The notes beneath the pieces are model-generated. The model ran no database searches and was not told the origin of the DNA. It saw only the letters and a program-made list of their open reading frames with translations. Positions 38,686-59,137 of a DNA stretch of 64,000 nt are shown one piece after another. Made by a program: the position numbers and the translations under genes. The stretch covers positions 1,838-65,837 of the forward strand of contig CAJTYO010000008.1 in the NCBI GenBank assembly GCA_910584045.1, in the 5' to 3' direction. Within the stretch, counting starts at the first letter, position 1. Each line of letters starts with the position of its first letter. Origin of the DNA: an uncultured Oscillospiraceae bacterium. Its GTDB lineage: Bacteria > Bacillota > Clostridia > Oscillospirales > Oscillospiraceae.

Positions 38686-39963
38686 ATGAACTACAACAAA
38701 AAAACGGTGAAGGATGTTGACGTCAAGGGCAAGAAGGTTTTGCTCCGCTGCGACTTCAACGTCCCCCAGGACAAGGCCACCGGGGCCATCACGGATGACA
38801 AGCGCATCCGCGCGGCCCTGCCCACCATCCAGTATCTGCTGGACCAGGGCGCGGCGGTCATTGCCTGCTCCCACCTGGGTAAACCTGAGCCCAGCTTCGA
38901 CAAGTGGGTGAAAAAGCAGAGCGAAAAGGGCAAAGACCCCGCCTCCCTCACCAGGGAGAAGTGGGAAAAGACCCTGGAGGCGCTCTGCATGGAGCCTGTG
39001 GCAAAGCGTCTGAGCGAGCTGCTGGGCAAAAACGTCATCCTGTCAGGCGACGTGGTTGGCCCCGACGCCCAAGCCAAGGCCGCCGCGCTGCAGTCTGGCG
39101 AGATCATGTTGCTCCAGAACACTCGTTTCGAGAAAGGTGAAACCAAGAACGATCCCGAGCTGGCCAAGGCCATGGCCGGTCTGACCGGGGCCGACGGCGT
39201 GTATGTGTCCGACGCTTTCGGTGCGGTCCACCGGGCTCACGCCTCCACCGCCGGCGTGGCGGCCTACCTGCCTGCCGTCTCCGGCTTCCTGATCCAGAAG
39301 GAACTGGAGTTTATTGGCGGCGCCCTGGCCGACCCCAAGCGGCCTTTGGTCGCCATTCTGGGCGGGGCAAAGGTGAGCTCCAAGATCGGCGTCATCAACA
39401 ACCTGCTGGAGATCGCCGACATCATCATCATCGGCGGCGGCATGGCCTACACCTTTGCCAAGGCCCAGGGCGGCACCGTAGGCGACAGCCTGCTGGAGAG
39501 CGACTGGTTGGACTACTGCAACGAGATGATCTCCAAGGCACAGTCCAAGGGCGTGAAGCTCCTGCTGCCGCTGGACACCGTGATTGCCGACAAGTTCGCC
39601 CCCGACGCCAACAGCCAGGTGGTCAAAAACGGCCAGATTCCCGACGGCTGGCAGGGGTTGGATATCGGGCCCGAGACAGTCAAGGCATACTGCGAGGCCG
39701 TACGGGACGCCGGTACGGTCATCTGGAACGGCCCCATGGGCGTGTTCGAGTTTGATAAGTTCGCCGTGGGGACCAAGGCCGTGGCCGAGGCCCTGAGCAA
39801 GACCTCCGCTATCACCATCATCGGCGGCGGCGACAGCGCTGCGGCTGTGCAGCAGCTGGGATATGCCGATCAGATGACCCATATCTCCACTGGCGGCGGC
39901 GCCTCTCTGGAGTTTATGGAGGGCAAGGAGCTGCCCGGCGTGGCCTGCCTGTTGGACAAGTAA
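38686..39963 (+). CDS. pgk: Phosphoglycerate kinase (with an insertion of about 25 aa after the SHLG motif)
   Basis: [73 protein letters not shown]. Confidence 0.95.
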
Positions 39964-40093
39964 GCCTTTGGAGGCGGACAGCCTCCGCCCATCAAGCGTC
40001 CCTTTGATATTTTTCAGCGGGCTAACGCACGGAGGAAAAGTGACTCATTTTTATTAGCCTACTATTATATATTGTAACAGGAGAAAGATCGTC

Positions 40094-40867
40094 ATGAACC
40101 GTAGATACCGCAAAACCATTATCGCCGGCAACTGGAAGATGAACAAGACCGCCACCGAGACCAAGAAATTTGCTGAGGAGATCAAGCCCATCCTGCCCCG
40201 CGCCAAGTGGTGCGAGGTGGTGGTGTGCGTCCCCTTCGTCAATATTCCTGCCGCTCTGAAGGCCTTTAAGGATATGCGGGTGGCCGTGGGCGCGGAGAAC
40301 TTGTACTTCGAGCCCAATGGGGCCTACACCGGCGAGGTGGCCGCTGATATGCTCAAGGATCTGGGCGTAAAGTATGTCATCATCGGCCACTCCGAGCGCC
40401 GTCAGTACTTCGGCGAAACCGACATCACCGTCAACAAAAAGGTCCTTGCAGCCCTGGAGGCCGGCCTGCATCCCATCATCTGTGTGGGCGAGAGCCTGGA
40501 GCAGCGGGAGATGGGCGTGACCATGGAGCTCATCGCCCTGCAGGTCAAGAGCGCCCTGTCCGGCGTGGCGCCGGAAAAGGTACGCAAGTGTGTGGTCGCT
40601 TATGAGCCCATTTGGGCCATCGGCACCGGCAAAACCGCCACTGCCGAGCAGGCTGCCGAGGTCTGTACCGCCATCCGCGCCACCATCCGCAATCTGTATG
40701 GAGCCCGAGTGGCCCGCTCCATCACCATCCAGTACGGTGGCTCCATGAATCCCAAGAACGCCGCGGAGCTGCTGGCCCAGCCCGACGTGGACGGCGGCCT
40801 CATCGGCGGCGCGGCTCTTAAGCCCGACCAGTTTGTGGACATCATCAACGCCGCCAACCAGGAATAA
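40094..40867 (+). CDS. tpiA: Triosephosphate isomerase
   Basis: IAGNWKMN, IIGHSERR, VAYEPIWAIGTG, QYGGS. Confidence 0.95.
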   Translation: MNRRYRKTIIAGNWKMNKTATETKKFAEEIKPILPRAKWCEVVVCVPFVNIPAALKAFKDMRVAVGAENLYFEPNGAYTGEVAADMLKDLGVKYVIIGHSERRQYFGETDITVNKKVLAALEAGLHPIICVGESLEQREMGVTMELIALQVKSALSGVAPEKVRKCVVAYEPIWAIGTGKTATAEQAAEVCTAIRATIRNLYGARVARSITIQYGGSMNPKNAAELLAQPDVDGGLIGGAALKPDQFVDIINAANQE

Positions 40868-40985
40868 CAGCTGGCAAACGCAGTGCGGTATCCGCCGGGG
40901 GCGGATACCGCCTCGTCTGCCCCCGGGGCGCCTGCGCCGGTGAGGGCCTAGGTCCCCCCAAAATGATTGAGAATTCGAGGTCATT

Positions 40986-42494
40986 ATGAACAAAACGCCT
41001 ACAACTTTAATTATTATGGACGGCTTCGGCCTGCGGGACGACTCCGACGGCAACGCGGTGGTCCACGCCAGAACGCCGGTGCTGGATAAGCTGTTCGCCG
41101 AGTGTGAGCACACCACTCTGTCCGCCTCCGGTCTGGACGTGGGTCTGCCCGACGGACAGATGGGCAACAGCGAGGTGGGTCACACCAACATTGGCGGCGG
41201 TCGGGTGGTGTACCAAGATCTGCCTCGGATCACCCGGTCCATCGAGGACGGCAGTTTCTTTGAAAATTCCGCCTACTGTGCCGCTATGAAGGCCTGTCTG
41301 GAAAACGGCAGCTCTCTGCACCTCTACGGTCTGCTCAGCGATGGCGGGGTCCACTCCCACAACACCCATCTATGGGCTCTGCTGAAGATGGCCAAGCTGA
41401 AGGGGCTGACACGGGTGTATATCCACGCCTTTCTGGATGGCCGGGACGTCTCCCCCACCAGCGGCAGGGGCTTTGTGTCCGAGACGGTGGAAAAGTGTAA
41501 GGAGATCGGCGTGGGCAAGATTGCCACCGTGATGGGACGCTACTACGCCATGGACCGCGATAAACGCTGGGAGCGGGTAGAGCAGGCCTATGACGCCATG
41601 GTCTACGGCCAGGGCGTACAGAACCCGGACCCGGTGGACGCTGTCGCCAAAAGCTATGCCAACAACGTGACTGACGAGTTTGTGGAACCCGTGGTCTGCG
41701 ACAGCGAGGGTGTCATCAGCGACAACGACAGCATCATTTTCTTCAATTTCCGCCCCGACCGGGCGCGTGAGATCACCCGGGTGTTCGTTGACCCGGAGTT
41801 TGACGGATTCCAGCGTGAGATTTTCCCCCTGACCTATGTGTGCACTACCGAGTACGACGCCACCATGCCCAACGTTCAGGTAGCCTTCCCCCGTATCCGG
41901 GTTGCCAACGGTCTGGGCGAATATCTCAGCACCATGGGCATGACGCAGCTGCGCATTGCCGAAACGGAGAAGTACGCCCATGTCACCTTTTTCTTCAATG
42001 GCGGCGTAGAGGCCGTGTTCCCCGGCGAGGACCGGGTTCTGGTGGCCTCTCCCAAGGTGGCCACCTATGATCTGCAGCCAGAGATGAGCGCCGTTGAGGT
42101 GACCGACAGATGTGTGGAGCGCATTGAGTCCGGGAATTACGATGTTATCATCCTCAATTTCGCCAACTGCGATATGGTGGGCCATACCGGAGTGTATGAA
42201 GCTGCGGTGAAGGCCGTGGAGACAGTGGATACCTGCGTGGGCCGCGTAGTGGATGCCACCAGGGCCATGGGCGGCATCGCCATGATCACCGCCGACCATG
42301 GCAACGCCGAAGAGATGCGCAAGTCCGACGGTTCCCCCATGACCGCTCATACCACCAATCTGGTGCCCTTTATTCTTGTGGGCGCGGATGCAAAGCTTCA
42401 TCCGGGCCGTCTGGCGGACATCGCCCCCACCATTCTGGATATTATGGGTTTGGAGCGCCCGCCCGAAATGGATGGGAAGAGTTTAATCGATTGA
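40986..42494 (+). CDS. gpmI: 2,3-bisphosphoglycerate-independent phosphoglycerate mutase (bacterial iPGM)
   Basis: LIIMDGFG, MGNSEVGH.N.G.GR, SDGGVHSH, FLDGRD, NFANCDMVGHTG, ITADHGNAE. Confidence 0.95.
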   Translation: MNKTPTTLIIMDGFGLRDDSDGNAVVHARTPVLDKLFAECEHTTLSASGLDVGLPDGQMGNSEVGHTNIGGGRVVYQDLPRITRSIEDGSFFENSAYCAAMKACLENGSSLHLYGLLSDGGVHSHNTHLWALLKMAKLKGLTRVYIHAFLDGRDVSPTSGRGFVSETVEKCKEIGVGKIATVMGRYYAMDRDKRWERVEQAYDAMVYGQGVQNPDPVDAVAKSYANNVTDEFVEPVVCDSEGVISDNDSIIFFNFRPDRAREITRVFVDPEFDGFQREIFPLTYVCTTEYDATMPNVQVAFPRIRVANGLGEYLSTMGMTQLRIAETEKYAHVTFFFNGGVEAVFPGEDRVLVASPKVATYDLQPEMSAVEVTDRCVERIESGNYDVIILNFANCDMVGHTGVYEAAVKAVETVDTCVGRVVDATRAMGGIAMITADHGNAEEMRKSDGSPMTAHTTNLVPFILVGADAKLHPGRLADIAPTILDIMGLERPPEMDGKSLID

Positions 42495-42509
42495 TAGAGC
42501 GCTAAGTAC

Positions 42510-42548
42510 GGCGTTCCCCTCTGAAAGGAGAGGGGAACGCCTCTTTTT
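42510..42548 (+). terminator. Intrinsic terminator after gpmI
   Basis: Perfect 13-bp stem ggcgttcccctct / agaggggaacgcc with a 6-nt loop, then TCTTTTT. Confidence 0.9.
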
Positions 42549-42675
42549 GCGGCCGGACCGGCTGCCTCTGTATAGCGTTCTCTGGTCCATTGAAAGCTGT
42601 GTTCTCTCGCCTTTCGTGAAAATGCCGAAACGCTCACACGGCAACATTTTTAAACGGGGACCTCACTGGACACAC

Positions 42676-42704
42676 TTGCCAACAGGCGCAAGAAATGGTA
42701 TAAT
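42676..42704 (+). promoter_or_regulatory. Promoter of the binding-protein/MCP pair
   Basis: TTGCCA (42676-42681), 17 nt spacer, TATAAT (42699-42704). Confidence 0.55.
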
Positions 42705-42735
42705 CTCCTCCGGAATTTGAGGAGGAGGCACGACA

Positions 42736-43977
42736 ATGAACATGAAAAGGAATTGGACGCTTCTGGCCCTATGCGCGGTTCTCACCCTGACCGCCTGCAG
42801 CAGACAGACGCAAGGGGAAGAAAACATGGAGCCGGAGCCCACCTATGAAACGGTTGAGCTGACCGTATGGGGGGCGGAGGAGGACGAGGCCCTGTTAGAG
42901 GAGCTGTTCGCCTCCTTCCAGAACCGATATGCCGGTGAGGCCAGCATCCGCATTACCTATCACCCCCAGAGTGAATCCAACTGCAAAGACGCAATGCTCG
43001 CGGACCTGGAACAGGGGGCAGATGTGTTCGCCTTTGCTGACGACCAGCTGGCCGCCCTAGCCGCCGCCGGTGCGCTAGACCCTATTGAGGACTCGGATGC
43101 CATCCGAGATGCAAATCTGCCCACAGCGGTGGAGGCCGCTTCCGTGGCCGGCACACTGTACGCCTATCCCCTGACAGCAGACAACGGCTATTTTCTCTAC
43201 TATAACAAGGCCTATTTCTCCGAGGAGGATGTTCAAAGCCTGGAGCGGATGCTGGCTGTCGCAGAGGAGCGGGAGCGGCTGGTATCTATGGACTGGTCCT
43301 CCGCTTGGTACGTATACGCCTTTTTCGGCAACACCGGACTGACGGTTGGACTACAGGAGGATGGTCTGACCAATTACTGTACATGGAACAGCACGGAAGG
43401 TCCCATCTGGGGCACAGACGTAGCCCGGTCCATGCTGAATGTGGCGGCCAGCCCCGCCTTTTCGAACCGACCGGACACAGAGTTCCTGCGCGGGGTGCGT
43501 GACGGCTCTGTCATCGCCGGGATCAGTGGCGTGTGGAACGCGGTGGCTGTTGAGGAGATTTGGGGCGCAAACACTGGAGCGGCCAAGCTCCCCTCCTTTA
43601 CCTGCCGGGGACAACAGGTACAAATGGCGTCCTTCTCCGGCTGTAAACTCATCGGCGTGAACGCCTACTCCAAACATCCGGTCTGGGCAACGCGGCTGGC
43701 GGAGTGGATCACCAGTGAGGAGAGTCAGACCCTCCGCTTCCAGCTGAGGGGACAGGGTCCGTCCAACATCCTCGCCGCTGAATCGCCAGAGGTGCAGGCT
43801 TCCCCGGCAATCCTTGCCCTTCTGGCCCAGTCGGAGTTCTCTCAGCTCCAGCGGGTCGGCGGCAAATTCTGGGAGCCGGTACAGGTCTTCTCTGCCAGTA
43901 TGGCGGCAGGCAATCCCGGCGGAGTCCCCCTGCAGGAGCAGCTGGACCGGATGGTGGAGGGCGTTACCGCCCGATAG
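42736..43977 (+). CDS. Extracellular solute-binding lipoprotein (family 1, sugar/maltodextrin type) without adjacent permease or ATPase genes
   Basis: Lipobox LTLTAC. LTVWGAEEDEALL...FA.DQL...GAL..I. is the pattern of SBP_bac_1/8 proteins. 413 aa. Confidence 0.8.
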   Translation: MNMKRNWTLLALCAVLTLTACSRQTQGEENMEPEPTYETVELTVWGAEEDEALLEELFASFQNRYAGEASIRITYHPQSESNCKDAMLADLEQGADVFAFADDQLAALAAAGALDPIEDSDAIRDANLPTAVEAASVAGTLYAYPLTADNGYFLYYNKAYFSEEDVQSLERMLAVAEERERLVSMDWSSAWYVYAFFGNTGLTVGLQEDGLTNYCTWNSTEGPIWGTDVARSMLNVAASPAFSNRPDTEFLRGVRDGSVIAGISGVWNAVAVEEIWGANTGAAKLPSFTCRGQQVQMASFSGCKLIGVNAYSKHPVWATRLAEWITSEESQTLRFQLRGQGPSNILAAESPEVQASPAILALLAQSEFSQLQRVGGKFWEPVQVFSASMAAGNPGGVPLQEQLDRMVEGVTAR

Positions 43978-44014
43978 AGATGGGGAACGCCCCAGAAAAA
44001 AATGGAGGGATTCG

Positions 44015-45601
44015 ATGAAAGGCAATCTTACGCTGCGGCAGCGGCTCATTCTACCCGTTATCCTGCTGGGACTGATATCCCTGCTGTCCAATATTTTGGC
44101 GGTCTCCGGCATCAACAGCGTCAATGCCAGCGCTGCAAAAATTGTGGACAACTACATGACCAGTGAGGCGCGGCTGGAGGAAATCCGCCGTTCAATTATG
44201 GATATCCACCGGCTGGCCCTGTCCCACATTGTGGCGGCGGACCACGCCACAATGATCCAGGTGGTAACCGAAATCAAGGCCGAAGAGGCTGCGCTGGAGG
44301 ACAGACTTGCGGACTATGCGCCCTTTGTCTCCGAGGCGGACGGAGATACATACCGCACTCTGCTCTCGGACTACCAGTCCTTTAAACACGCCCTGGTCCG
44401 GCTGGTCTGCGCCAGTGCCGACAGCAAAACCCAGGAGGCCTATGCTCTGGCAAACGGGGACGCAGCCAGCTGGAGCGAGTCCGCAGAGGCGTGCATCGAC
44501 ACGCTTTACGCCTCCGTCAGCGCCCAAGCCGGGGCGGCGCGAAACCACTTGAACGCCGTATATATCACCGCCCTGATTATCAGCACCGCCGCTCTCCTCG
44601 CAGGTATCGCCTTGGTAGCGGCCGCCTTCCGCATTATTCGAAAGTACGTCATCGCCCCTATTCAGGATACGCTGCACACCCTTCAAGACAGCTCGGAGCG
44701 CCTGGGCGGCGTAGTCGGCGAGGTTCGGCGGCGGGTGGAAACCTCCGGCGGCAGCGTTCGAGGCCTATCCGGTCTGATGGAACAGCTGTCCGCCGCCATT
44801 GAGGAGGTAGCTGGCAGCACCGCCGCCATCACCTCCAGCGCCGCAGGCACCCGGGAGGACGCCGCCGCCATGGTGGAGGAGTGCGCTGCTATCACCGCAT
44901 ACTCCGCTGATATGCGCCGCCGCGCAGAGGAGCTGGAGCACTCCGCCGAGAGCTCACGGGACGCCATCCGTTCCCGGACGGAAGAAATTGTTGACTCCCT
45001 CAACGGCGCTATTGAGAAAAGCCGCAGTGTGGATCAGATCGGCGCTCTGACCAAAGATATTCTGGCCATCTCCTCCTCTACGGATCTTATCGCCATCAAC
45101 GCCTCCATCGAGGCTTCCCGGGCAGGAACGGCCGGAAAAGGCTTTGCCGTTGTCGCACAAGAAATCCGGCGGCTGGCCGACTCCTGCGCCGAGACAGCGG
45201 GTCATATCCAGGAGGTCAGCGCAGTGGTCACCGGCGCGGTGCGCTATCTGTCCGACAGTGCCCAGGAACTGGTGGAGTACCTGGGACAGGCGGTGCTCAC
45301 TCAATTTGAGCAGTCAGTACAGTCCGGGCGGCAGTACCGGGAGGACGCCGCCTATGTCGCCCATGCTATGGACGACTTTAACAGCCGGACAGACCGGCTG
45401 CAAGCCGCCATGGCGGAGATTGCCGGGTCTATCTCCAGCATTTCCGGCGCGATCGACGGCGCAGCCTCCGGCATCACCGGAGTGGCCGGCAATGCGCGCA
45501 GCCTGGCGGACGATATGGCCGGCATCACAGCCCGCATGGATACAAATCAGGAGATTGTGGGCGAGCTTCAGGGTCAAATGGACGTATTTGCCAACTTGTA
45601 A
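44015..45601 (+). CDS. Methyl-accepting chemotaxis protein (4-helix-bundle sensor)
   Basis: TM1, about 160 aa helical ectodomain, TM2. Highly conserved signalling hairpin IAINASIEASRAGTAGKGFAVVAQEIRRLA. Start moved to the ATG at 44015. Confidence 0.9.
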   Translation: MKGNLTLRQRLILPVILLGLISLLSNILAVSGINSVNASAAKIVDNYMTSEARLEEIRRSIMDIHRLALSHIVAADHATMIQVVTEIKAEEAALEDRLADYAPFVSEADGDTYRTLLSDYQSFKHALVRLVCASADSKTQEAYALANGDAASWSESAEACIDTLYASVSAQAGAARNHLNAVYITALIISTAALLAGIALVAAAFRIIRKYVIAPIQDTLHTLQDSSERLGGVVGEVRRRVETSGGSVRGLSGLMEQLSAAIEEVAGSTAAITSSAAGTREDAAAMVEECAAITAYSADMRRRAEELEHSAESSRDAIRSRTEEIVDSLNGAIEKSRSVDQIGALTKDILAISSSTDLIAINASIEASRAGTAGKGFAVVAQEIRRLADSCAETAGHIQEVSAVVTGAVRYLSDSAQELVEYLGQAVLTQFEQSVQSGRQYREDAAYVAHAMDDFNSRTDRLQAAMAEIAGSISSISGAIDGAASGITGVAGNARSLADDMAGITARMDTNQEIVGELQGQMDVFANL

Positions 45602-45931
45602 TGACATCAGTAAAATAGGAAGGTCTGTTTCTTACCGGCCTCCCTATTTTATCTTTTGTGCCGGAAATATCCACTTCCTCTGCCGCCAGGGTATATACGC
45701 CGAGCTTCGCTCTTCTGACCGGATTGAAAATATCCCCTTCTCGCCTCGGCTGCCAGTACGAACGATTCTCTCAGAATTGTCGAGACAAAACCAGGAAAAT
45801 TCCTCAGATAACATAACTGCCACATCCTCTTTGCCTATTTCTTACATAAAAGTACAGTTTTTACAAAATACTTAAAAATAATTGATACTGTACAACCATG
45901 TACAGGGCGCAAAAAATACGCCAGTTTCTTA

Positions 45932-45960
45932 TTGAAAGGGAAAGGAAAATAAGGTATAAT
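45932..45960 (+). promoter_or_regulatory. Promoter upstream of the apgM-like gene
   Basis: TTGAAA (45932-45937), 17 nt spacer, TATAAT (45955-45960). Confidence 0.55.
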
Positions 45961-45992
45961 AGACATAATCATCCATAAGGAGGAGCTGTTTT

Positions 45993-47228
45993 ACGAAATA
46001 TCTGCTTATTATCGGGGACGGCATGGCCGACGACCCTGTCCCTCGACTGGGAAATAAAACGCCGCTGCAAGCCGCTGCAACACCCGCCATCGACCGCATG
46101 GCCGCAAACGGTCTGGTGGGAAGCGTAGTCAACTGCCCCCCTCCCCTGCCCGCGGGGAGCGAAACGGCCATTTTGTCCATCTTTGGCTGCGACCCCAGAA
46201 AGTATTTTACGGGCCGCTCCCCGATGGAGGCGGCCGCCGCCGGGATCAAAATGCAGAGGGGAGACGCAGCTTTCCGGTGCAACCTTGTCACGCTGGAGGA
46301 CGGAGACGGTCCTATGGAGAAAAAACGCATTCTCTCCCACTCCGCCGGATCTATTGACGGCCCGTCCGCCATGGAAACTACGGCGGCCCTGCTGGCGGAC
46401 AGCCGCTTTGCCGCGGCTCTAGCCGCGGCACGGATAGATATCCACCGCTTCCCAGTTTTCCGCCAGCTGGCCGTACAGCATGAAAGCGACATCTCGGATA
46501 TTCGCTTCTCCCCGCCCCACGACCACCTGGGCGAGGAGGCAGGCTTCTATCTTCCCGCCGGAAACCAGCGGGCGGAGGTCTTCGCCGGGCTGATGCGTCT
46601 GGCCCATGAGATTCTGGACCGCCATCCGGTGACGGAAAAGCGGCGCGCTACCGGGAAGCTGCCGGCCAACGGCATCTGGTTCTGGGCGGAGGGCACCGCG
46701 GCGGCGCTGCCCTCCTTCCGGGAGCAATACGGTCTGGACGGCGCGGTAATCAGCGCGGTACCCCTGTGCCAGGGCATCGGGGTGCTAAGGGGCCTGGAGC
46801 GCGTGGAGGTGGAGGGGGCCACCGGGGAGCTGGACACCAACTTCGAAGGCAAGCTGGAGGCCGTGTGGACCAAGCTGCAGAAGTACGACTTCGTCTGCCT
46901 GCACCTGGAGGCCCCCGACGAGTGCACCCACAACGGCGACCTGCCCGGAAAGCTGCAGGCTATCGAGTGGCTGGACAGCCGTCTGGTGGAACCACTGCTG
47001 TCCCGTATGGAAACCGCCGGCATAGAACACCGCATCCTGCTCCTGAGCGACCATAAGACATTGACCGCCACCCGCGGCCATGGGGCGGACCCCGTCCCCT
47101 TCCTCCTCTATGACAGCCGGCAGAGCACGGGCCGCGGCGGCGTCTACGACGAGCCCGCTGGAGAAAAAGGTCCCTTCGTGGAGGACGGAAGCACCCTTCT
47201 ATCCAGACTGTTCGACGATACACTCTGA
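45993..47228 (+). CDS. Archaeal-type cofactor-independent phosphoglycerate mutase / proposed homoserine kinase family (alkaline-phosphatase superfamily). Start codon unresolved
   Basis: KYLLIIGDGMADDP...TPL..A.TP..D.MA..G..G, SGSETAILSIFGCDP, LHLEAPDE..H.GD...K..AIE..D, LSDH.T. The conserved KYLLIIGDG lies upstream of the first ATG (46023). The SD at 45977-45985 points to the ACG at 45993. Confidence 0.75.
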   Translation, partial: TKYLLIIGDGMADDPVPRLGNKTPLQAAATPAIDRMAANGLVGSVVNCPPPLPAGSETAILSIFGCDPRKYFTGRSPMEAAAAGIKMQRGDAAFRCNLVTLEDGDGPMEKKRILSHSAGSIDGPSAMETTAALLADSRFAAALAAARIDIHRFPVFRQLAVQHESDISDIRFSPPHDHLGEEAGFYLPAGNQRAEVFAGLMRLAHEILDRHPVTEKRRATGKLPANGIWFWAEGTAAALPSFREQYGLDGAVISAVPLCQGIGVLRGLERVEVEGATGELDTNFEGKLEAVWTKLQKYDFVCLHLEAPDECTHNGDLPGKLQAIEWLDSRLVEPLLSRMETAGIEHRILLLSDHKTLTATRGHGADPVPFLLYDSRQSTGRGGVYDEPAGEKGPFVEDGSTLLSRLFDDTL

Positions 47229-50995: not shown

Positions 50996-52483
50996 ATGTC
51001 AAAAGCAATTATCAACGCCAACCGCTCCAAAGGCATTATCAACAAAAATATCTATGGACAGTTTTCAGAACATCTGGGCCGCTGCATCTATAACGGCATC
51101 TACGTGGATGAAAACGCCGGAATTCCCCATGAAAACGGGATGCGCACGGATGTGGTCCGCGCCCTAAAGGACCTGCGCATTCCGGTGCTGCGGTGGCCCG
51201 GCGGCTGCTTTGCGGACACCTACCACTGGCAGGACGGCATTGGCCCCCGTGAGGGCCGGAAGAAGATCGTCAATACCTTCTGGGGCGGCGTGACCGAGGA
51301 TAACTCCTTCGGCACCCACGAATTTCTGGAACTCTGCCGCCAGCTGGGGTGTGAGCCATATATCTCCGGCAACGTGGGCAGCGGCACAGTGCAGGAATTT
51401 TCTGACTGGGTGGAATACTGCAACATGGGCGGACAGTCCCCCATGGCGGACCTGCGCCGCGCCAACGGCCGGGAGGAGCCCTGGCATGTGAAATACTGGG
51501 GCATCGGCAACGAGACCTGGGGCTGCGGCGGCAACATGCGCCCTGCATTTTACGCCGACCTGTGCCGCCAGTACGCCACCTATCTACGCGCTTATGACGG
51601 TGCGCACCCACTCTGCCGCATCGCCTCCGGGGCCAACGCGGATGACTACCTCTGGACCAAGGAACTGATGGAGATCGCCGGCGGGTTCGTGGACGCGGTG
51701 AGCTTCCACTACTATACTGTCCCCGACTCGTGGGAGCACAAGGGCAGCGCCCTGAACTTCAGCCGAGAGGCGTATTTTGCCGCCCTCCGCCGCGCCCTGC
51801 GCATGGACGAGCTGGTGGAGAACCACTCCCGCATTATCCGCCAGTATCAGGGGGAGCGCAAGGTAGGTCTGGTGGTAGACGAGTGGGGCACCTGGTTCGA
51901 CGTGGAGCCCGGCACCAACCCCGGCTTCCTCTACCAGCAGAATACTATGCGGGATGCGCTGGTGGCCGCTGTGAGCCTGAATATTTTCAACAACCACTGC
52001 GACACCGTGGTGATGGCTAATATCGCCCAGCTTGTGAACGTGCTGCAGGCCATGATCCTGACCGAGGGGGGGAAAATGCTGCTGACCCCCACCTATCACG
52101 TATTCGAGATGTATAAAAATCACCAGGACGCCCGACAGCTGGAGAGTTATGTAGAAACCTCCCTGACTGGCGTGACCGGGGAAAATCGGGTCCCCAACCT
52201 CCACATCTCCGCCAGCCAGAGCAGCGACGGCACCGTGCTGATCACCGCCGCCAATCTGGACGACGAGCAGGGCGCGGCGTTGGACTGCGCTCTGGCCGGA
52301 TTGGGCAGAATTGGCAGCATCACAGGCCGGCTGCTGTCCGGACCGGCCGGCGCCCACAATACCTTCGATAAGCCAGAGGCCGTCAGACCCGCCGCACTGG
52401 AGCATATTCAGACCACTGCGGACGGCTTCAAGGCCGCCCTTCCCCCCTGTTGTGTGGCTGCCTTCGAGGTCAGGCCTGCATGA
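50996..52483 (+). CDS. abfA: Alpha-L-arabinofuranosidase, GH51
   Basis: [50 protein letters not shown]. Start moved to the ATG at 50996, which follows AAGGAG. Confidence 0.9.
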
Positions 52484-52740
52484 ACGGCCCCAACCGCTGC
52501 CGCCGGTGCCTGCTGCGGGAAATGGCCGGTGAAAACAGCTATTATGAAAGCGTGAAATTCTACCGGGAGACTCTGCCCACGAAAAAACGCACCCCGGACG
52601 ATATTTACGAGATCCGCCTCCAGACCTGCAAGGCCTGCGCCAGCCTGGAGAGCGGCACCTGTATGCAGTGCGGGTGCTATGTGGAAATGCGTGCAGCCCG
52701 TCTGGATATGCACTGCCCATGCAAGGAAGCAAAGTGGTAA
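52480..52740 (+). CDS. Small Cys-rich protein (9 Cys; CxxC, CxxC, CxxCxC, CxC)
   Basis: 86 aa: [12 protein letters not shown]...CKAC...CMQCGC...HCPC. The ATG overlaps the abfA stop (ATGA). No family confidently recalled. Confidence 0.55.
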
Positions 52741-52906
52741 AAGGCAAGCCGGAGGTACTGCGTGGCCCGTTTCCTGGCGGAAAATTGTCAATGTGCTCAA
52801 CGCAGACTAAAGCGAAAATATAGACTTGATTTTCGTCTGATGTTCGTGTTAGAATAATCCCCGTGGGGTTGAAAAACACCCAGCAATAATGCAGGGAGGC
52901 ATAGTA

Positions 52907-53275
52907 ATGAATACAACAAAAAAACACATCTTGGTGGTAGATGATGATAATCTGAATTTGACGAGAACAAAGATGATTCTCGGCGAAGACTATCTGGTTC
53001 TTTTGGCGGAGTCGGGTATGGAAGCACTGGATAAGCTCAAAAGCGAAACGGTTGATATGGTGCTTCTGGACATCGATATGCCAAAGATGAATGGCATCCA
53101 AACCTTTGAACTTATGAAGGATTTCGCCGCCGATATACCGGTCATTTTCCTGACGGCCTCTGGTTCGGAAGAAGACGTCGTCAGCGCAATCAAGCTGGGA
53201 GCGGTGAATTATCTCAAAAAGCCCTTCCGTCCGCAGGAGCTGCGCAGGCGAATCGCACAGGAGTTTGAAAAGTAA
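52907..53275 (+). CDS. Stand-alone CheY-like response regulator receiver
   Basis: ILVVDDD, MVLLDIDMPKMNG, FLTA, KLGAVNYLKKPF. 122 aa with no output domain. Confidence 0.85.
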   Translation: MNTTKKHILVVDDDNLNLTRTKMILGEDYLVLLAESGMEALDKLKSETVDMVLLDIDMPKMNGIQTFELMKDFAADIPVIFLTASGSEEDVVSAIKLGAVNYLKKPFRPQELRRRIAQEFEK

Positions 53276-55836
53276 TGAGGGCGGAAGAACAGACAAGCAG
53301 GCACCTGCTTCTGGCCTCTGTCACAACGGCGTTCAGCGGAATAATCATCCTGATCACCCTGGTTATGTCGTGGGAATTCTGGATGGTTCCGCTGATGATA
53401 ACAGGTTGTTTCTGCGTATGGTTCCTGCATATTGCAAGGCTCGGCTCGGATGTATTTTTTGAATATTTGAGCGCCGGAGTGATGCTGATTGAATTCTTTT
53501 TCTTCGGCGTACATGAAACCAGCCTTTTCGATATACCCGCAATGGCCTGTATCCTGATCCTTGCGCTGTTCATGTTGAATAAAAAACGCATTTTGTATAT
53601 GATCGATGCGTTATATGTGCTGGAGCTAGCGTACCACGGGCTGATCCTCAACACCATTTCCTATCGAATGGAGCCCCGGGAGGTATTCCGCCTGGGGCTC
53701 AGCGTCGTTGTGACCATTGGCGCTACGGCGCTTGCCGTATACTGGATCAACCGGCGAAATGCACAGCGCAAGTGGTATGAGGGCGTTTTTGCGGAGCTGG
53801 AGACAGCGGGAAAGCAGAATGCCGTTTTTCTGTCAAACGTATCTCATGAACTCCGCACACCCATCAATATGGTCATCGGTATCAGCGAGGTGGCTCTCGG
53901 CAAGGAGCTCTCCCCTGAAATCCGGGCGGATATGAGCTCCATAAAGCTTGCGGGAAAACGTCTGTCCAATCAGATTAATAACATGCTGGACTATACGGAG
54001 ATCGTAGAGGGGACGCTCACACCTGCTAAAGAAAACTATATGATTACCTCGGTACTCAACGATGTAATCACGATGACCGCCCTGCAAACCAACCGCCAGC
54101 ACTTGGAGCTGGTGTTTGATATCGATCCAAAGACCCCGGCAGTCCTTATCGGAGACGCGGAGAAAATTTCCCACGTGCTCAAGATTTTGGTAGAAAACTC
54201 CATCAAATTCACGGAAGAGGGCGGCATCAACGTCCGGATCGGATTCCGCCAGGAGCGGTATGGCATCAATTTGATTATCGATATACGCGATACCGGCATT
54301 GGCATGACGGACTCCCAACTGACGCAGATGTACGACGTCTTCTATCAGGCAGATTCCGGCAGCAGCCGCTTTGCGGGCGGGCTGGGACTGGGGCTCCCCA
54401 TTGCGCAGGGCCTTTTAACCGCGATGGGCGGCTTCATCCATTTTGATGTCAAGGGACAGCGGGGCCTTCATGCCCATATCGTAATCCCTCAGGGCGTCAC
54501 GGACGACCGCCCATGCATTGTGCTCAACCACGCAGATCAGCTCTGCATCGCATGCTACTTCCGGCCGGAAAAGTACAGCTGTGACGAGGTCCGGGGTTAT
54601 TACGACGGGCTGATCCTAAATCTGGTGGAGGGCCTTGGCATCCAGGGATACCAGGTACATAATTTCGACGGACTGCTTAAGGTACAGCGCAGCCATGCAC
54701 TGACCCATGTGTTCATCGCCCAGGCGGAATATGAAGAAAACCGGGAGTATTATGAGGAGCTGGCCGGTAAACTTCGGGTTGTTGTGATCGCAGAAAGAGA
54801 ATTTATCCTCAGCAGCACAAGCAGGCTGTTTATAATACATAAACCCTTTTCCGCTCTTTCCGTTGCCAATCTGCTCAACGGCGAGCTTGGCGAACGCGAG
54901 TTCGCGGAAGATCAGGCCGCCGGCCGGAAGCCCTTTACCTGTGTGGGGGTCCGTGCGCTGGCTGTGGATGACGAGGAGATGAATCTTGTGGTCGCCAAGG
55001 GCGTCCTTGGCAGCTATGGGATCGAGGTGGAAACCTGTTTAAGCGGGAGAGAGGCTGTGGCGCGATGCGACAGCTCCCCCTATGACATTATTTTTTTGGA
55101 CCATATGATGCCAGGCTTCGACGGTGTGGAGACGCTGAAAAAAATACGGGAGCTCCAAAACGGAATCTATCAGGATCTTCCGATCATCGCGCTGACCGCA
55201 AATACGGTCAGCGGCGCAAGAGAGATGTTCCGCAGCGAGGGGTTTACCGAATTCGTCCCAAAGCCTATTGAGCGCACTGTCTTGGAGCGGGTTCTGCGCA
55301 AGGTTCTGCCCAAAAGCTGTATTAACTATAGCGTAAAATCCACAGACGTAGAGGCTTCCGAGGAAGATGCCAAACCTTCTCCGGCGGCGGAGGTAGACGA
55401 GTCAGATAGAACGGCAGACCTGGCAGAGTGCGCGAACGCTCCGGAGGCAGCTGACTTACCGGATGCCGCAGCCGGTGAAACCTCGATCCTCCACGGCCGG
55501 CTGGTTCAGGCCGGCGTCAATGTGGAACTCGGACTGGACTATTGCGGAGGCGAAGAGGACTTTTTCCGGGAAATGCTGCGGATGTTCGCAGCTCAAAGCG
55601 AGGACAAGCGGGCAGAACTCGCCGCACTGTATGAAAGCGCCAACTGGGCGGACTACGCCGTCAAAGTCCACGCACTGAAAAGCACCTCGCTGACCATTGG
55701 AGCCGAATCACTTTCCGCGCAGGCAAAGGAGCTTGAGCTGGCCGGGAAACGGGATGATGCGGACTTTATCCGGGCACATCACTCCGCACTGCTGCGCGCA
55801 TATGAAAACCTGTGTGCACAACTTGCCGGAATATAG
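53275..55836 (+). CDS. Hybrid sensor histidine kinase: polytopic TM sensor, HisKA, HATPase, pseudo-receiver, receiver, Hpt
   Basis: H-box SHELRTPIN. N/G boxes (DTGIGM, GGLGLGL). REC with IIFLDHMMPGFDG and KP. C-terminal Hpt KVHALKSTSLTIGA. The start overlaps the receiver-gene stop (TAATG). Confidence 0.9.
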   Translation: MRAEEQTSRHLLLASVTTAFSGIIILITLVMSWEFWMVPLMITGCFCVWFLHIARLGSDVFFEYLSAGVMLIEFFFFGVHETSLFDIPAMACILILALFMLNKKRILYMIDALYVLELAYHGLILNTISYRMEPREVFRLGLSVVVTIGATALAVYWINRRNAQRKWYEGVFAELETAGKQNAVFLSNVSHELRTPINMVIGISEVALGKELSPEIRADMSSIKLAGKRLSNQINNMLDYTEIVEGTLTPAKENYMITSVLNDVITMTALQTNRQHLELVFDIDPKTPAVLIGDAEKISHVLKILVENSIKFTEEGGINVRIGFRQERYGINLIIDIRDTGIGMTDSQLTQMYDVFYQADSGSSRFAGGLGLGLPIAQGLLTAMGGFIHFDVKGQRGLHAHIVIPQGVTDDRPCIVLNHADQLCIACYFRPEKYSCDEVRGYYDGLILNLVEGLGIQGYQVHNFDGLLKVQRSHALTHVFIAQAEYEENREYYEELAGKLRVVVIAEREFILSSTSRLFIIHKPFSALSVANLLNGELGEREFAEDQAAGRKPFTCVGVRALAVDDEEMNLVVAKGVLGSYGIEVETCLSGREAVARCDSSPYDIIFLDHMMPGFDGVETLKKIRELQNGIYQDLPIIALTANTVSGAREMFRSEGFTEFVPKPIERTVLERVLRKVLPKSCINYSVKSTDVEASEEDAKPSPAAEVDESDRTADLAECANAPEAADLPDAAAGETSILHGRLVQAGVNVELGLDYCGGEEDFFREMLRMFAAQSEDKRAELAALYESANWADYAVKVHALKSTSLTIGAESLSAQAKELELAGKRDDADFIRAHHSALLRAYENLCAQLAGI

Positions 55837-55873
55837 CGTCTTCCGGCATCTTTTCAAAAATGAATTCTGAGGA

Positions 55874-58585
55874 GTGGAAGCCTGCGTGATTAAAAAATGG
55901 TTTGAGATCATCACGGATCACCGAATCAGCCTGTATGAGCGTATGTTCCGCATCGTGACAGGCATCTGCATGATCGCACTGATATTTACTCTGCCCATGG
56001 GCCGGAGTATTTTAAATGCCGTACTGCTGATCATAAGCCTTATCGCAATGGCGGTGATCGTGCGATTCAGTATTCGCAAGAGGCGCATCCAAATGGGTGC
56101 AACAGCCATCGCGGTACTGTTGCTGTCGCTGTTTCCCATTACCTTTTTTTCCGCAGGCGGATTTTACAGCGGCGTACCGGAGTGGTTCGTCCTCTGCTTC
56201 ATCTATGTCTGCATCACACTGCAGGGAAAGCGCAGGACCGTGTTTTTCGGACTGTGCACAGCGGAGACACTGCTTTGCTATGGCATCGCCTTCTATTTTC
56301 CAAACCTGGCTGTACTGAATCCCCACAACAACTCCTTCTTTGACTCCGCCTTTTCAATGATTATGGTAGGGCTTCTCACCAGTGTGCTGCTCATGTTCCT
56401 CAACCGAATGTATGAGGAGGAAAACGCCCTCTCCCAGCGGCAGAAAAAGGAAATTGAGGAGCTGAACCGGGCGGAAAATCACTTCTTTTCCAGCATGAGC
56501 CACGAGATCCGCACACCGATCAATACGATCATCGGGCTCAATGAGCTCATCCTGCGGGAGGCCATTTCAGAGGAAGTAGCGGAAAACGCCAGGAATATTC
56601 AGGGCGCCAGCAAGCTGTTGCTGACGCTGATAAACGACACGCTGGACCTGTCCAAGATCAAATCCGGGAAGATGGAGATCGTCAATATCTCGTACGAAAC
56701 TGGCGCGCTCTTTTCTGAAATTGTCAATATGATTTGGATCAAGGCCAAGGAAAAGGGTCTGGAATTCAAGCTGCAAGTGGACCCGTCTATTCCGAGTATG
56801 CTCTGTGGAGACGAGGTGCGCATCAAGCAGATTTTAATTAACCTGTTGAATAACGCGGTGAAATATACCAGCGAGGGCTCCGTCACCCTTTCCGTTCGCT
56901 GCGAGCGTCAGGCTGTCAACCGGGTACGCGTCTGGTACTCTGTTGAAGATACCGGTCAGGGTGTGAAAAAAGAAAATATTCCCTATATTTTTAACGCATT
57001 CCGGCGGGTTGATGAGGAGAAGAACCGGTATATCGAGGGGACCGGCCTTGGATTAAGCATCGTCCAGCAGCTTGTGGATCTGATGGGCGGCGAAATCAGC
57101 GTGAACAGCGTGTACACAAAGGGATCAAAATTCATTGTCATGCTGGAACAGGACATCATTGACGATAAAGAGCTGGGGACGTTTACGCTTGCCTCCCGCG
57201 CGAAGGCTCATGAGGGCGAAGCGTACCGCCAGAGCTTTGAGGCGCCGGACGCCCACATCCTCGTAGTAGATGACAACGATATGAACCTGATGGTGGTCAG
57301 CAAACTGCTGGCGGAGACAAAGATCCAGATCGATATGGCCTCCAGCGCCGCCGAATGCCTGAAGCTGACACAGAACCACCTCTACGACTGTATTCTTATG
57401 GACCACATGATGCCGGAGATGGACGGGATCGAGTGTCTCCACGCGCTGCGGGCACAGCCGGGCGGCTTGTGTCAGAACGTCCCTGTTGTCGCCCTTACCG
57501 CCAATGCGGGCAGCGACAACCAGCTTCTTTACCGCAAGGAGGGCTTCAGCGGCTATCTGGCAAAGCCGGTCAGCGGCGCTCTTCTGGAGGCGGCCGTTCT
57601 GAGCATTCTTCCTAAAGAGCTGGTAAAGATTAACGATGATGTTCAGCAGTCGGACATTGATAAGGACATTTTGATCTTTGAGCAGGTTAAAAGGCGGACT
57701 ATCCTAATCACAACAGACAGCGTATGCGACCTTCCGGAATCTCTCAGGAAGGAATTCAGTATTTCCGTGTGTCCCTATTATGTCTGTACGGATGAGGGAC
57801 GGTTTCTGGATGGTCAGGAGCTGAAAACTGACGAACTACTGATGCATATCGCCGGAGGACGGAAAGGATATTCACAGCCTCCCGAGGTGGAGGACTACGA
57901 GAGATTCTTTGCGGAGAAACTGACAGAGGCACAGAATGTTATCCACATATCAATGGCCAGGCACGTCAGCGAAGGCTATCAGAATGCTGTCGAGGCGGCA
58001 AAATCCTTTGAAAACGTTACCGTGATTGATTCCGGGCATCTATCCAGCAGTATGGGACTGACGGTACTGTGCGCCGCCTATATGGCGGAGCATCACGCCG
58101 CAAAGGCGGAAATTGTGGAGTCTGTGAAACGGATGGAACGCTTCATCTCCTCCGCATTTATCATAAACACCACCCATATGATGTGTCAGGCCGGCAGGAT
58201 ATCGAAACGCATTCAAATTCTCTGCGACGCACTGCTGCTCCATCCGGTCCTTGTACTGAAAAAGAGCAGGATGGTGGTCGGCAGTATGGAGATGGGTAAC
58301 TTCTCGCATGTTGCGAAGAAATATGTGAGGAAAACCTTTCAGGATACGAGAAATATTGACCGCCGCATCCTGTTTATCACCTATTCCGGCATGGATGAAA
58401 AAAAACTCCAGTATATCCAGAATTTGGTGAAGCAGTACTGTTCGTTTGAACGGGTTTATCTGCAGCAAGCGTCCTCCGCTATCGCGAGCAACTGCGGTCC
58501 GGGATCCTTCGGCTTACTTTTCATGCGGCGGGATGACGCTGCGCTCTCATTCTTCCAGATACAGGATCAGGATGGCGCTGCGTAA
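55874..58585 (+). CDS. Hybrid sensor histidine kinase: polytopic TM sensor, HisKA, HATPase, receiver, C-terminal DegV-family domain
   Basis: H-box SHEIRTPIN. DTGQGV, GTGLGLSI. REC ILVVDDNDMN...ILMDHMMPEMDG...AKP. About 290 aa DegV-like follow (ILITTDSVCDLP, YSQPP, IHISMARHVSEGYQNA, VIDSGHLSSSMG, CGPGSFGLLF). The exact start (GTG at 55874 or 55886) is uncertain. Confidence 0.85.
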   Translation: MEACVIKKWFEIITDHRISLYERMFRIVTGICMIALIFTLPMGRSILNAVLLIISLIAMAVIVRFSIRKRRIQMGATAIAVLLLSLFPITFFSAGGFYSGVPEWFVLCFIYVCITLQGKRRTVFFGLCTAETLLCYGIAFYFPNLAVLNPHNNSFFDSAFSMIMVGLLTSVLLMFLNRMYEEENALSQRQKKEIEELNRAENHFFSSMSHEIRTPINTIIGLNELILREAISEEVAENARNIQGASKLLLTLINDTLDLSKIKSGKMEIVNISYETGALFSEIVNMIWIKAKEKGLEFKLQVDPSIPSMLCGDEVRIKQILINLLNNAVKYTSEGSVTLSVRCERQAVNRVRVWYSVEDTGQGVKKENIPYIFNAFRRVDEEKNRYIEGTGLGLSIVQQLVDLMGGEISVNSVYTKGSKFIVMLEQDIIDDKELGTFTLASRAKAHEGEAYRQSFEAPDAHILVVDDNDMNLMVVSKLLAETKIQIDMASSAAECLKLTQNHLYDCILMDHMMPEMDGIECLHALRAQPGGLCQNVPVVALTANAGSDNQLLYRKEGFSGYLAKPVSGALLEAAVLSILPKELVKINDDVQQSDIDKDILIFEQVKRRTILITTDSVCDLPESLRKEFSISVCPYYVCTDEGRFLDGQELKTDELLMHIAGGRKGYSQPPEVEDYERFFAEKLTEAQNVIHISMARHVSEGYQNAVEAAKSFENVTVIDSGHLSSSMGLTVLCAAYMAEHHAAKAEIVESVKRMERFISSAFIINTTHMMCQAGRISKRIQILCDALLLHPVLVLKKSRMVVGSMEMGNFSHVAKKYVRKTFQDTRNIDRRILFITYSGMDEKKLQYIQNLVKQYCSFERVYLQQASSAIASNCGPGSFGLLFMRRDDAALSFFQIQDQDGAA

Positions 58586-58609: not shown

Positions 58610-58638
58610 TTGCCATCAGGAAAAAAATCTGCTATACT
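58610..58638 (+). promoter_or_regulatory. Promoter of the TSCPD-family gene
   Basis: TTGCCA (58610-58615), 17 nt spacer, TATACT (58633-58638) with an extended -10 TG (58630-58631). Confidence 0.6.
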
Positions 58639-58671: not shown

Positions 58672-58929
58672 ATGACTTACACCTATTCCCCCACCGGTGT
58701 CTGCTCCTCCAGAATCGACCTGGAACTGGAGGACGGCGTGATTCGATCCGTGGTCTTCACTGGCGGCTGCAACGGTAATTTAAAGGGTATTTGCAGCCTG
58801 GTGAAAGACATGCCAGCTAAGGAGGCTATCAGCAAGCTCCAGGGCATCCAGTGCGGCTGGAAGCCCACCAGCTGTCCCGACCAGCTGTCCAAAGCCCTCA
58901 CCGAGGCTTTGCAGGTAGAGGGAAAATAA
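58672..58929 (+). CDS. TSCPD-domain small protein (TIGR03905-like)
   Basis: 85 aa. C...I.L.L.DG.I..V.F.GGCNGN..GI..L..G......I..L.GI.CG.K.TSCPDQL. Confidence 0.8.
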   Translation: MTYTYSPTGVCSSRIDLELEDGVIRSVVFTGGCNGNLKGICSLVKDMPAKEAISKLQGIQCGWKPTSCPDQLSKALTEALQVEGK

Positions 58930-59137
58930 AGCATCTGCCAGCCCCCGGAAGGCTCTGACGCCCTCCGGGGGCGGCAGTATTTTCCATTCATGCCTGCGGC
59001 CTCTGCTAGAGACTTCATGGTCAACAAGCATTGTATGAAACGCGCCATCAAGGCACAGGCTTGATATTTGATAAATCGACAACAGCGCTTTTTCAAGTTC
59101 GCACACTATACAATGTCTGCCCAAAGGAGATGAAACA

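Follow-up and report, generated by a model that had tools for sequence, protein, structure and literature searches.

A 64,000-nucleotide stretch of contig CAJTYO010000008.1 (assembly GCA_910584045.1; referred to here as the window), from an uncultured Oscillospiraceae bacterium, carries three consecutive phosphorelay genes, here called the triad, which encode a stand-alone receiver (REC1), a membrane hybrid histidine kinase ending in a histidine phosphotransfer (Hpt) domain (HK1), and a second membrane hybrid kinase (HK2) whose C-terminal region matches the DegV family of fatty-acid-binding proteins (Table 1). HK2 is specified by one uninterrupted open reading frame (ORF; 55874..58585, +) of 903 amino acids (aa); its likelier start is a GTG codon at 55886, because this lies 11 nt 3' of a GAGGAG sequence (55869-55874), giving a protein of 899 aa, which is also the length of the family cluster member P0448. 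Within the single frame the order of domains is a six-transmembrane (6-TM) region, HisKA, HATPase_c, receiver (REC) and DegV. The original prediction, made from the DNA letters and their translations, had proposed a DegV domain fused to the C-terminus of a hybrid kinase-receiver at 57698-58585, and the fusion is confirmed by Pfam, by the NCBIfam model TIGR00762 and by an AlphaFold2 (AF2) model; the coordinates are correct and correspond to aa 609-903, and a Pfam scan of the 903-aa protein, which had been put forward as a check, matched HisKA, HATPase_c, Response_reg and DegV.

The features of a hybrid histidine kinase of the HisKA class are all present in HK2, including the H box, the N, G1 and G2 boxes, and the acidic pair, phospho-acceptor Asp, Thr and Lys of the receiver (D466/D467, D510, T542 and K564), with D510 (57401-57403, in ILMDHMMPEMDG) being the phospho-acceptor already named in the original prediction. 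Across 57 family members H210, N323/N327, D359xGxG, G389xG, D466/D467, D510 and K564 are invariant or nearly so, and because the catalytic residues of kinase and receiver are all conserved, HK2 is, by prediction, a working hybrid kinase. The N-terminal membrane domain is homologous throughout the family (phmmer), with conserved columns P88, G95, G96, G100, W104, P143 and D157 and a family-wide FFxSGGxxGGAxxW motif between the third and fourth transmembrane segments; no Pfam family was matched by this region, one member giving a sub-threshold match to MASE11 (E 0.002), and it may constitute an undescribed membrane sensor domain.

Assignment of the C-terminal region to the DegV family draws on profile searches and on structure prediction. 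The match to PF02645 spans positions 2-278 of the 280 in the profile, at E 4.5e-38 and 131.6 bits (cut-off 27), and TIGR00762, the NCBIfam DegV model, scores 144.9 bits with the whole of HK2 and 148.9 bits with the tail alone (cut-off 99.7). The AF2 model, which covered aa 455-903 and used an alignment of 125 family sequences, has a mean predicted local distance difference test (pLDDT) score of 90.7 and a predicted template modelling (pTM) score of 0.72, with low confidence only at the last residues and at the linker between REC and DegV, where pLDDT falls to 51-61 (model residues about 130-150). Its DegV part superposes in Foldseek on all solved DegV and FakB structures (45 chains; E 5e-24 to 3e-16), with template modelling (TM) scores of 0.82-0.91 (target TM 0.77-0.91), Staphylococcus aureus FakB2 (4X9X) reaching 0.91, at sequence identities of 17-27%; the nearest solved protein by sequence is Thermus thermophilus DegV 2DT8 (1.4e-25). 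The two-lobed DegV fold is predicted, and by profile match and modelled fold the tail of HK2 is a bona fide, full-length DegV-family domain. The spacer that joins it to REC is 13-15 residues long in 257 of 311 family members, and this fixed length points to a defined REC-DegV geometry; the direction of control is not given by the spacer.

Table 1. Features of the triad and the domains of HK2 in the window.
Feature	Coordinates	Strand	Basis and remarks
Promoter-like site (TTGATT, 18 nt spacer, TG-TAGAAT), 5' of the triad	52826..52855	+	Consensus scan only, not functional evidence
REC1, stand-alone receiver, 128 aa, first triad gene	52889..53275	+	Pfam Response_reg, 1.8e-30
HK1, membrane hybrid kinase, 853 aa: HisKA-HATPase_c-(150 aa without Pfam match)-REC-Hpt	53275..55836	+	Pfam
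HK2 N-terminal membrane domain, six hydrophobic segments	55886..56428	+	Hydropathy; first 185 residues
HK2 kinase core: HisKA aa 202-265 (phospho-His H210, 56501-56503) and HATPase_c aa 312-426	56477..57151	+	Pfam
HK2 receiver, Response_reg, aa 462-575	57257..57598	+	Pfam, 1.3e-22
HK2 REC-DegV linker	57599..57700	+	Sequence not conserved, length conserved
HK2 DegV domain (EDD fold, fatty-acid-binding family), aa 610-884	57701..58525	+	Pfam, NCBIfam, AF2 and Foldseek

The carboxylate of the fatty acid is held in FakB proteins by a network of Thr61, Ser93 and His266 together with Arg170, an arrangement common to all FakB isoforms (PMC10848957, PMC8892158), and Leu181 and Arg202 are essential for the binding of FakA (PMC10848957). 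Equivalents of the head-group residues were located by aligning 331 DegV domains and three solved sequences with L-INS-i (Table 2). N873, at the His266 position, directly precedes the GPG motif; all aligned solved DegV and FakB proteins carry His there, and the nearest stand-alone DegVs also have Asn. Lys185 of FakB, likewise at the head-group site, is replaced by His family-wide. The position of Leu181 is Ala in 80 of the 89 clade members, and that of Arg202 is Ser, Asp, Asn or Gly in the clade, the window protein having no Arg anywhere in the surrounding segment, whose alignment is uncertain and gapped even between the three solved reference sequences. The FakB1 equivalog hidden Markov model (HMM) NF038249 scored 72.4 bits against a cut-off of 350, and no FakA- or Dak2-type protein was found among the 15 ORFs of the window that were run through Pfam.

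Table 2. Residues of the FakB2 head-group site and their counterparts in HK2 and its relatives.
FakB2	HK2	Oscillospiraceae clade (n=89)	Wider fused family (n=223)
Thr61	S667	Ser 100%	Ser 48%, Ala 23%, Thr 10%
Ser93	S699	Ser 100%	Gly 58%, Ser 28%
Arg170	R775	Arg 65%	Tyr 27%, Arg 25%, Lys 17%
His266	N873	Asn 100%	Asn 77%

Comparison with the known members of the family places the domain close to them in fold and apart from FakB in detail. The FakB proteins (S. aureus FakB1 and FakB2, Streptococcus suis FakB2) and the stand-alone DegVs (2DT8; TM841, 1MGP) belong to the same Pfam and TIGRFAM family and share the two-lobed fold, and like FakB the HK2 domain keeps the TDSxxDLP, DSG and GxG motifs and the equivalents of Thr61 (as Ser), Ser93 and Arg170. 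Unlike these soluble proteins of about 280 aa, it is fused to a membrane hybrid kinase, and unlike FakB it has Asn for His266, His for Lys185, an Arg170 that is variable within the family, and neither Leu181 nor Arg202; what was found is therefore neither the full Thr61-Ser93-His266 and Arg170 carboxylate site nor the FakA-docking pair. An identity as FakB was rejected on the sub-cut-off FakB1 profile score, the His-to-Asn change and the absent FakA-docking residues, and the domain is a distinct and uncharacterised subtype of the DegV family. The original prediction had described the tail as tracking stand-alone DegV/FakB-type proteins motif by motif; the motif matches were right in substance, and three alignments required correction, in that the Ser of YSQPP (S667) aligns with FakB Thr61 and its Tyr does not, the His of VIHISMARHVSEGY lies two positions ahead of the canonical His while S699 aligns with Ser93, and Asn873 occupies the place of His266. 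The likeness to FakB had nonetheless been overstated, as the replaced His266, the poorly conserved Arg170, the missing Leu181 and Arg202 and the FakB1 score of 72 against 350 make plain.

The REC-then-DegV order occurs in more than 300 distinct proteins at 29-88% identity. A word-indexed search with the REC and DegV regions returned at least 120 relatives, with 56-88% identity among the matches listed, and all those of sufficient length carry PF00072, PF02645 and kinase domains; representatives at the 50% identity clustering level were scanned exhaustively with HMMER, which gave 548 clusters below E 1e-30, the best 150 of which are mostly ~890-aa proteins with the same domain order, down to 29% identity, and a profile search added at least 120 further full-length members from Lachnospiraceae, Roseburia and other metagenome-assembled genomes (MAGs). 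Databases list the architecture only under the generic name 'DegV family protein', the members from the profile search appearing as 'DegV family (EDD domain-containing) protein'. A single degenerate peptide pattern, built from 8 closer sequences, identified 435 relatives among the GTDB species representatives, and the best 80 of these, which served as the genome set, are orthologs at 79-89% identity, from Oscillospiraceae-type genomes that include many mouse-gut MAGs and the genera Oscillibacter, Acutalibacter, Anaerotruncus (A. colihominis JM4-15), Pseudoflavonifractor, Neglectibacter and Lawsonibacter. Among the carriers are isolates, namely Acutalibacter intestini, A. colihominis JM4-15, Oscillibacter sp. 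1-3 and Pseudoflavonifractor sp. 524-17. None of the 80 is identical to the window protein; mean identity to it is highest in the kinase core (91.7%), followed by REC (88.7%), DegV (83.6%) and the membrane domain (77.6%). With identities of 77-90% between species, the DegV domain is, to judge from its sequence conservation, under strong purifying selection.

An assembly or annotation artefact, or a decaying fusion devoid of function, has a practically negligible probability: many database entries are shortened (395-783 aa) and one ortholog has an in-frame TGA in its N-terminal domain, but the window ORF is uninterrupted, the DegV domain is conserved between species to the extent just given, and the same architecture recurs in 80 species-level genomes and in hundreds of metagenome proteins. 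The continuous ORF and this recurrence led to rejection of a sequencing artefact or frameshift; the stop or frameshift between REC and DegV that the original prediction had named as a risk is absent, and the fusion is in frame here and in the 80 genomes. Stand-alone REC-DegV response regulators were also considered and dropped, as the 395-500-aa entries, which start within the receiver or the kinase, resemble truncated gene calls.

The interrupted ortholog (locus L001:7653-8001, equivalent to window 55886-56230) has its TGA at the codon of the nearly invariant Trp104 ('VPE*FVLCF') and is consequently called as pieces of 99 aa and 783 aa; a pseudogene, an error of sequencing or stop-codon read-through could each account for this. 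Many database entries of 696-783 aa may reflect the same or similar start-call problems.

The three genes of the triad form a conserved unit. The stop codon of REC1 overlaps the start of HK1, and the order REC1, HK1 with Hpt, HK2 with DegV is kept in 76 of 82 related loci, the flanks of which differ. Between the membrane domains of HK1 and HK2 no homology was detectable. In distant Lachnospiraceae (about 40% identity) the triad consists of a REC-HD-GYP protein, an HK-REC-Hpt kinase and an HK-REC-DegV kinase, the first of which carries the HHExxxGxGYP motif and is a predicted c-di-GMP phosphodiesterase; Roseburia is among the carriers of this HD-GYP version. REC1 is 43% identical to the receiver of the REC-HD-GYP protein at one such locus (L085), and HK1 shares 34% identity with its Lachnospiraceae counterparts across the full length; the two modules are therefore orthologous, and the window clade has a receiver-only regulator. 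A segment of HK1 between HATPase_c and REC (aa about 407-560; 54493-54954) has no Pfam match and is conserved in Lachnospiraceae, where the full-length alignments with the HK1 orthologs extend through it.

At least five arrangements join this DegV subtype to the kinase family, and the C-terminal position seen in HK2 is one of them. The subtype is also found between receiver and phosphotransfer domain (REC-DegV-Hpt, about 1150 aa), at the C-terminus of kinases of about 1010 aa whose extracellular sensor is a dCache domain, ahead of the same 6-TM domain in DegV-TM-HK-REC-Hpt proteins of about 1065 aa, beside which the upstream HK1 ortholog ends after REC and lacks an Hpt, and at the N-terminus of a 1568-aa dCache kinase. 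A split version also exists (L091:3-1368), in which an HK1-like hybrid kinase ends just after REC, again without Hpt, and the next gene, whose start overlaps the stop codon of the kinase, encodes DegV by itself (304 aa; Asn subtype; 44% identity to the window domain). In all of these arrangements each kinase pair retains a single DegV and a single Hpt, and the positions of the two move.

Such mobility bears on function, since a domain placed at either terminus or supplied in trans is more fittingly an accessory sensor or regulator than an output driven by REC. The reading preferred here, to which about an even chance is given, is that DegV acts as a tethered cytoplasmic lipid-sensing or regulatory input that docks in a ligand-dependent manner on the receiver or kinase core. 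Phosphate would pass in each kinase from His to its own REC Asp, thence to the single Hpt on HK1 and on to the stand-alone receiver REC1; HK2 has no Hpt and must therefore, as we infer, exchange phosphate with that of HK1. DegV would load a fatty acid or related membrane lipid from the inner leaflet, and in its loaded or unloaded state would dock on the receiver or kinase core, altering how much phosphate HK2 delivers to the shared Hpt or withdraws from it and so providing the relay with a second, lipid-sensing input. FakB-type proteins adopt an open conformation in which fatty acid moves between protein and membrane (PMC8892158), and because they open at the membrane, a membrane-tethered DegV is a plausible sampler of membrane lipid. 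Two-component signalling is under fatty-acid control in other systems too, such as the RpfC/RpfG pair compared below. In S. aureus, the free fatty-acid pool controlled by Fak governs the activity of the SaeRS system (PMC5539427). The original prediction had left a choice between a lipid-gated phosphorelay and phosphorylation-controlled lipid binding: the general idea of lipid binding coupled to a phosphorelay is retained, and the balance leans to the lipid-gated form on the grounds that DegV is also found N-terminally, between REC and Hpt, on dCache kinases and as a separate gene.

Several points weigh against a lipid-sensing input. Any ligand of DegV is putative, and the carboxylate site of FakB is remodelled, with Asn at the His266 position throughout the clade and in most of the wider family, Arg170 kept in some members, and Gly most often at Ser93 in the wider family (Table 2), so that the ligand may be something other than a free fatty acid, or there may be none. 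The linker is predicted to be flexible and the pTM is 0.72, and thus no REC-DegV interface is demonstrated; a position immediately after REC with a conserved spacer is just as compatible with control of DegV by REC. The flanks of the related and Lachnospiraceae loci show no linkage of the triad to genes of lipid metabolism. Such linkage was set aside as an explanation, the flanks being variable and the sole recurrent pair being that of a solute-binding protein (SBP) and a methyl-accepting chemotaxis protein (MCP), in 8 of the 82 loci.

Control in the opposite direction, with DegV as an output, is considered unlikely; phosphorylation of D510 would then change lipid binding, release or hand-over, for example to phospholipid synthesis, and the relay would regulate the use of exogenous fatty acids. 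DegV does sit directly after REC, the usual place of an effector, in more than 300 proteins and at a conserved spacer length, and the window-clade triad encodes no other enzymatic or DNA-binding output, REC1 being a bare receiver; however, the same subtype also lies N-terminally, far from REC in sequence, or in a separate gene, and the Lachnospiraceae triads already possess a conventional output in REC-HD-GYP. The FakA-docking residues Leu181 and Arg202 (PMC10848957) are moreover not conserved, and a FakB profile score so far under its cut-off makes hand-over to FakA improbable. A little less probable again is a ligand-free scaffold, DegV serving solely as a docking or dimerisation surface that would, for instance, join HK2 with HK1 and its Hpt or with REC1. 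Degradation of the carboxylate-binding residues across the family is compatible with such a role, as is the constant co-occurrence of HK1 and HK2 with one Hpt between them, and FakA_C supplies a precedent, being a DegV-like fold without the conserved Arg that mediates protein contacts (PMC10848957); of the four head-group residues the window clade nevertheless retains three (S667, S699 and, in 65% of members, R775), together with an Asn capable of hydrogen bonding, its complete two-lobed fold is close to that of lipid-loaded FakBs (TM up to 0.91), and the instability of apo-FakBs (PMC8892158) implies that the fold usually needs a lipid.

Very improbable, in turn, is a direct exchange of phosphoryl groups between DegV and the receiver or Hpt, by which a bound, perhaps long-chain, acyl-phosphate would phosphorylate D510, or phosphorylated REC or Hpt would phosphorylate a bound fatty acid in the manner of a FakA-independent fatty acid kinase; if this were true, the relay would be wired directly into lipid metabolism without FakA, reading from or writing to the acyl-phosphate pool on which phospholipid synthesis draws. 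Small acyl phosphates, acetyl phosphate among them, serve as phosphodonors for the autophosphorylation of receiver domains, DegV lies beside REC, or between REC and Hpt, at a fixed spacer length, and the family-wide exchanges of His266 for Asn and Lys185 for His fall precisely at the head-group site. DegV/FakB proteins are also known to hold both the substrate and the product of acyl-phosphate formation (PMC10848957). The proposal is nonetheless wholly inferential, the Arg responsible for anchoring the carboxylate varies, variants with DegV at the N-terminus or in its own gene need no adjacency to REC, and the AF2 model provided no structural interface between the two domains.

Parallels to the triad are found among established signalling systems. 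The RpfC/RpfG system of Xanthomonas consists of a hybrid kinase with an Hpt domain and a REC-HD-GYP regulator, and senses the fatty-acid diffusible signal factor (DSF). A link between DSF, RpfG and c-di-GMP has been reported (PMC9758175). The triad shares with this system a multi-TM kinase with HisKA, HATPase, REC and Hpt domains beside a receiver protein, which in the Lachnospiraceae is a REC-HD-GYP protein, and a fatty-acid theme; it differs in having a second kinase with DegV, in the lack of HD-GYP in the window regulator, and in belonging to Firmicutes and not to Proteobacteria. HMM searches gave no match of the triad specific to RpfC or RpfG, only generic domains, and no enoyl-CoA-hydratase-type gene, the type of the DSF synthase RpfF, was present in the flanks inspected. 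The resemblance is one of layout and does not show membership. In Vibrio, the kinases LuxN, LuxQ and CqsS converge on one Hpt protein, LuxU. Two hybrid kinases are similarly served by one Hpt in the triad, and where HK2 carries the Hpt, HK1 lacks it; unlike in the Vibrio relay, one of the two kinases itself carries the Hpt, and an accessory lipid-binding fold is not known to have been described in such relays. The S. aureus SaeRS/Fak connection, like HK2, ties together DegV-family proteins, fatty acids and a membrane-embedded histidine kinase (PMC5539427), the link there being indirect, through pool size and separate proteins, whereas in HK2 kinase and DegV domain are joined covalently in one polypeptide.

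Full-text literature searches, the coverage of which excludes most subscription journals, found no publication on a DegV-histidine kinase fusion. To our knowledge, the sole established role in the very large DegV family is that of FakB, which carries the fatty acid for fatty acid kinase, and the majority of members are without an assigned function. The original prediction had allowed that the architecture might turn out to be a common and already characterised one; common it is, and no paper characterising it was found. The phosphorelay itself is of a known kind, and the DegV accessory domain and its conserved pairing with a two-kinase, one-Hpt module appear to be undescribed. An Asn-type DegV subtype is thus built into a two-kinase phosphorelay that is conserved in many abundant gut Clostridia (Oscillospiraceae and Lachnospiraceae), and in part of the family the last component of the relay is an HD-GYP regulator, predicted to act as a c-di-GMP phosphodiesterase. 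If DegV senses fatty acids or membrane lipids, gut commensals would have a direct molecular route from dietary or host lipids to second-messenger signalling, motility or the choice between attached and free-living states, and the domain would represent a new class of cytoplasmic input for two-component systems. The fusion may further serve as a 'Rosetta stone' for the indirect and still unexplained link between Fak and a histidine kinase in S. aureus (PMC5539427).

Other features of the neighbourhood include an SBP_bac_8 gene with a methyl-accepting chemotaxis protein gene at 42736-45601, 7 kb upstream of the triad; the same SBP and MCP pair adjoins the triad in the eight loci mentioned above (L001, L006, L017, L034, L060, L069, L075 and L081), an MCP follows HK2 in the Lachnospiraceae locus L085 (10701-12107), and these placements may hint at a link of the relay to chemotaxis or motility. 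Just 5' of the triad, a 96-aa Cys-rich ORF of the DUF6171 family (Pfam 3.7e-17; 52450-52740) overlaps the 3' end of an ORF for a GH51 alpha-L-arabinofuranosidase. A glycolytic cluster at 38686-47228 comprises a phosphoglycerate kinase gene (38686-39963) and two genes of the cofactor-independent phosphoglycerate mutase (iPGM) type that differ in domain content, one being iPGM_N/Metalloenzyme (40986-42494) and the other PhosphMutase/Metalloenzyme (46023-47228). Directly 3' of HK2 lies a gene for an 85-aa stand-alone TSCPD-domain protein (58672-58929), which is not conserved beside the triad in related loci and comes with a separate promoter-like site (58610-58638) and, at 58959-58973, a hairpin resembling a terminator.

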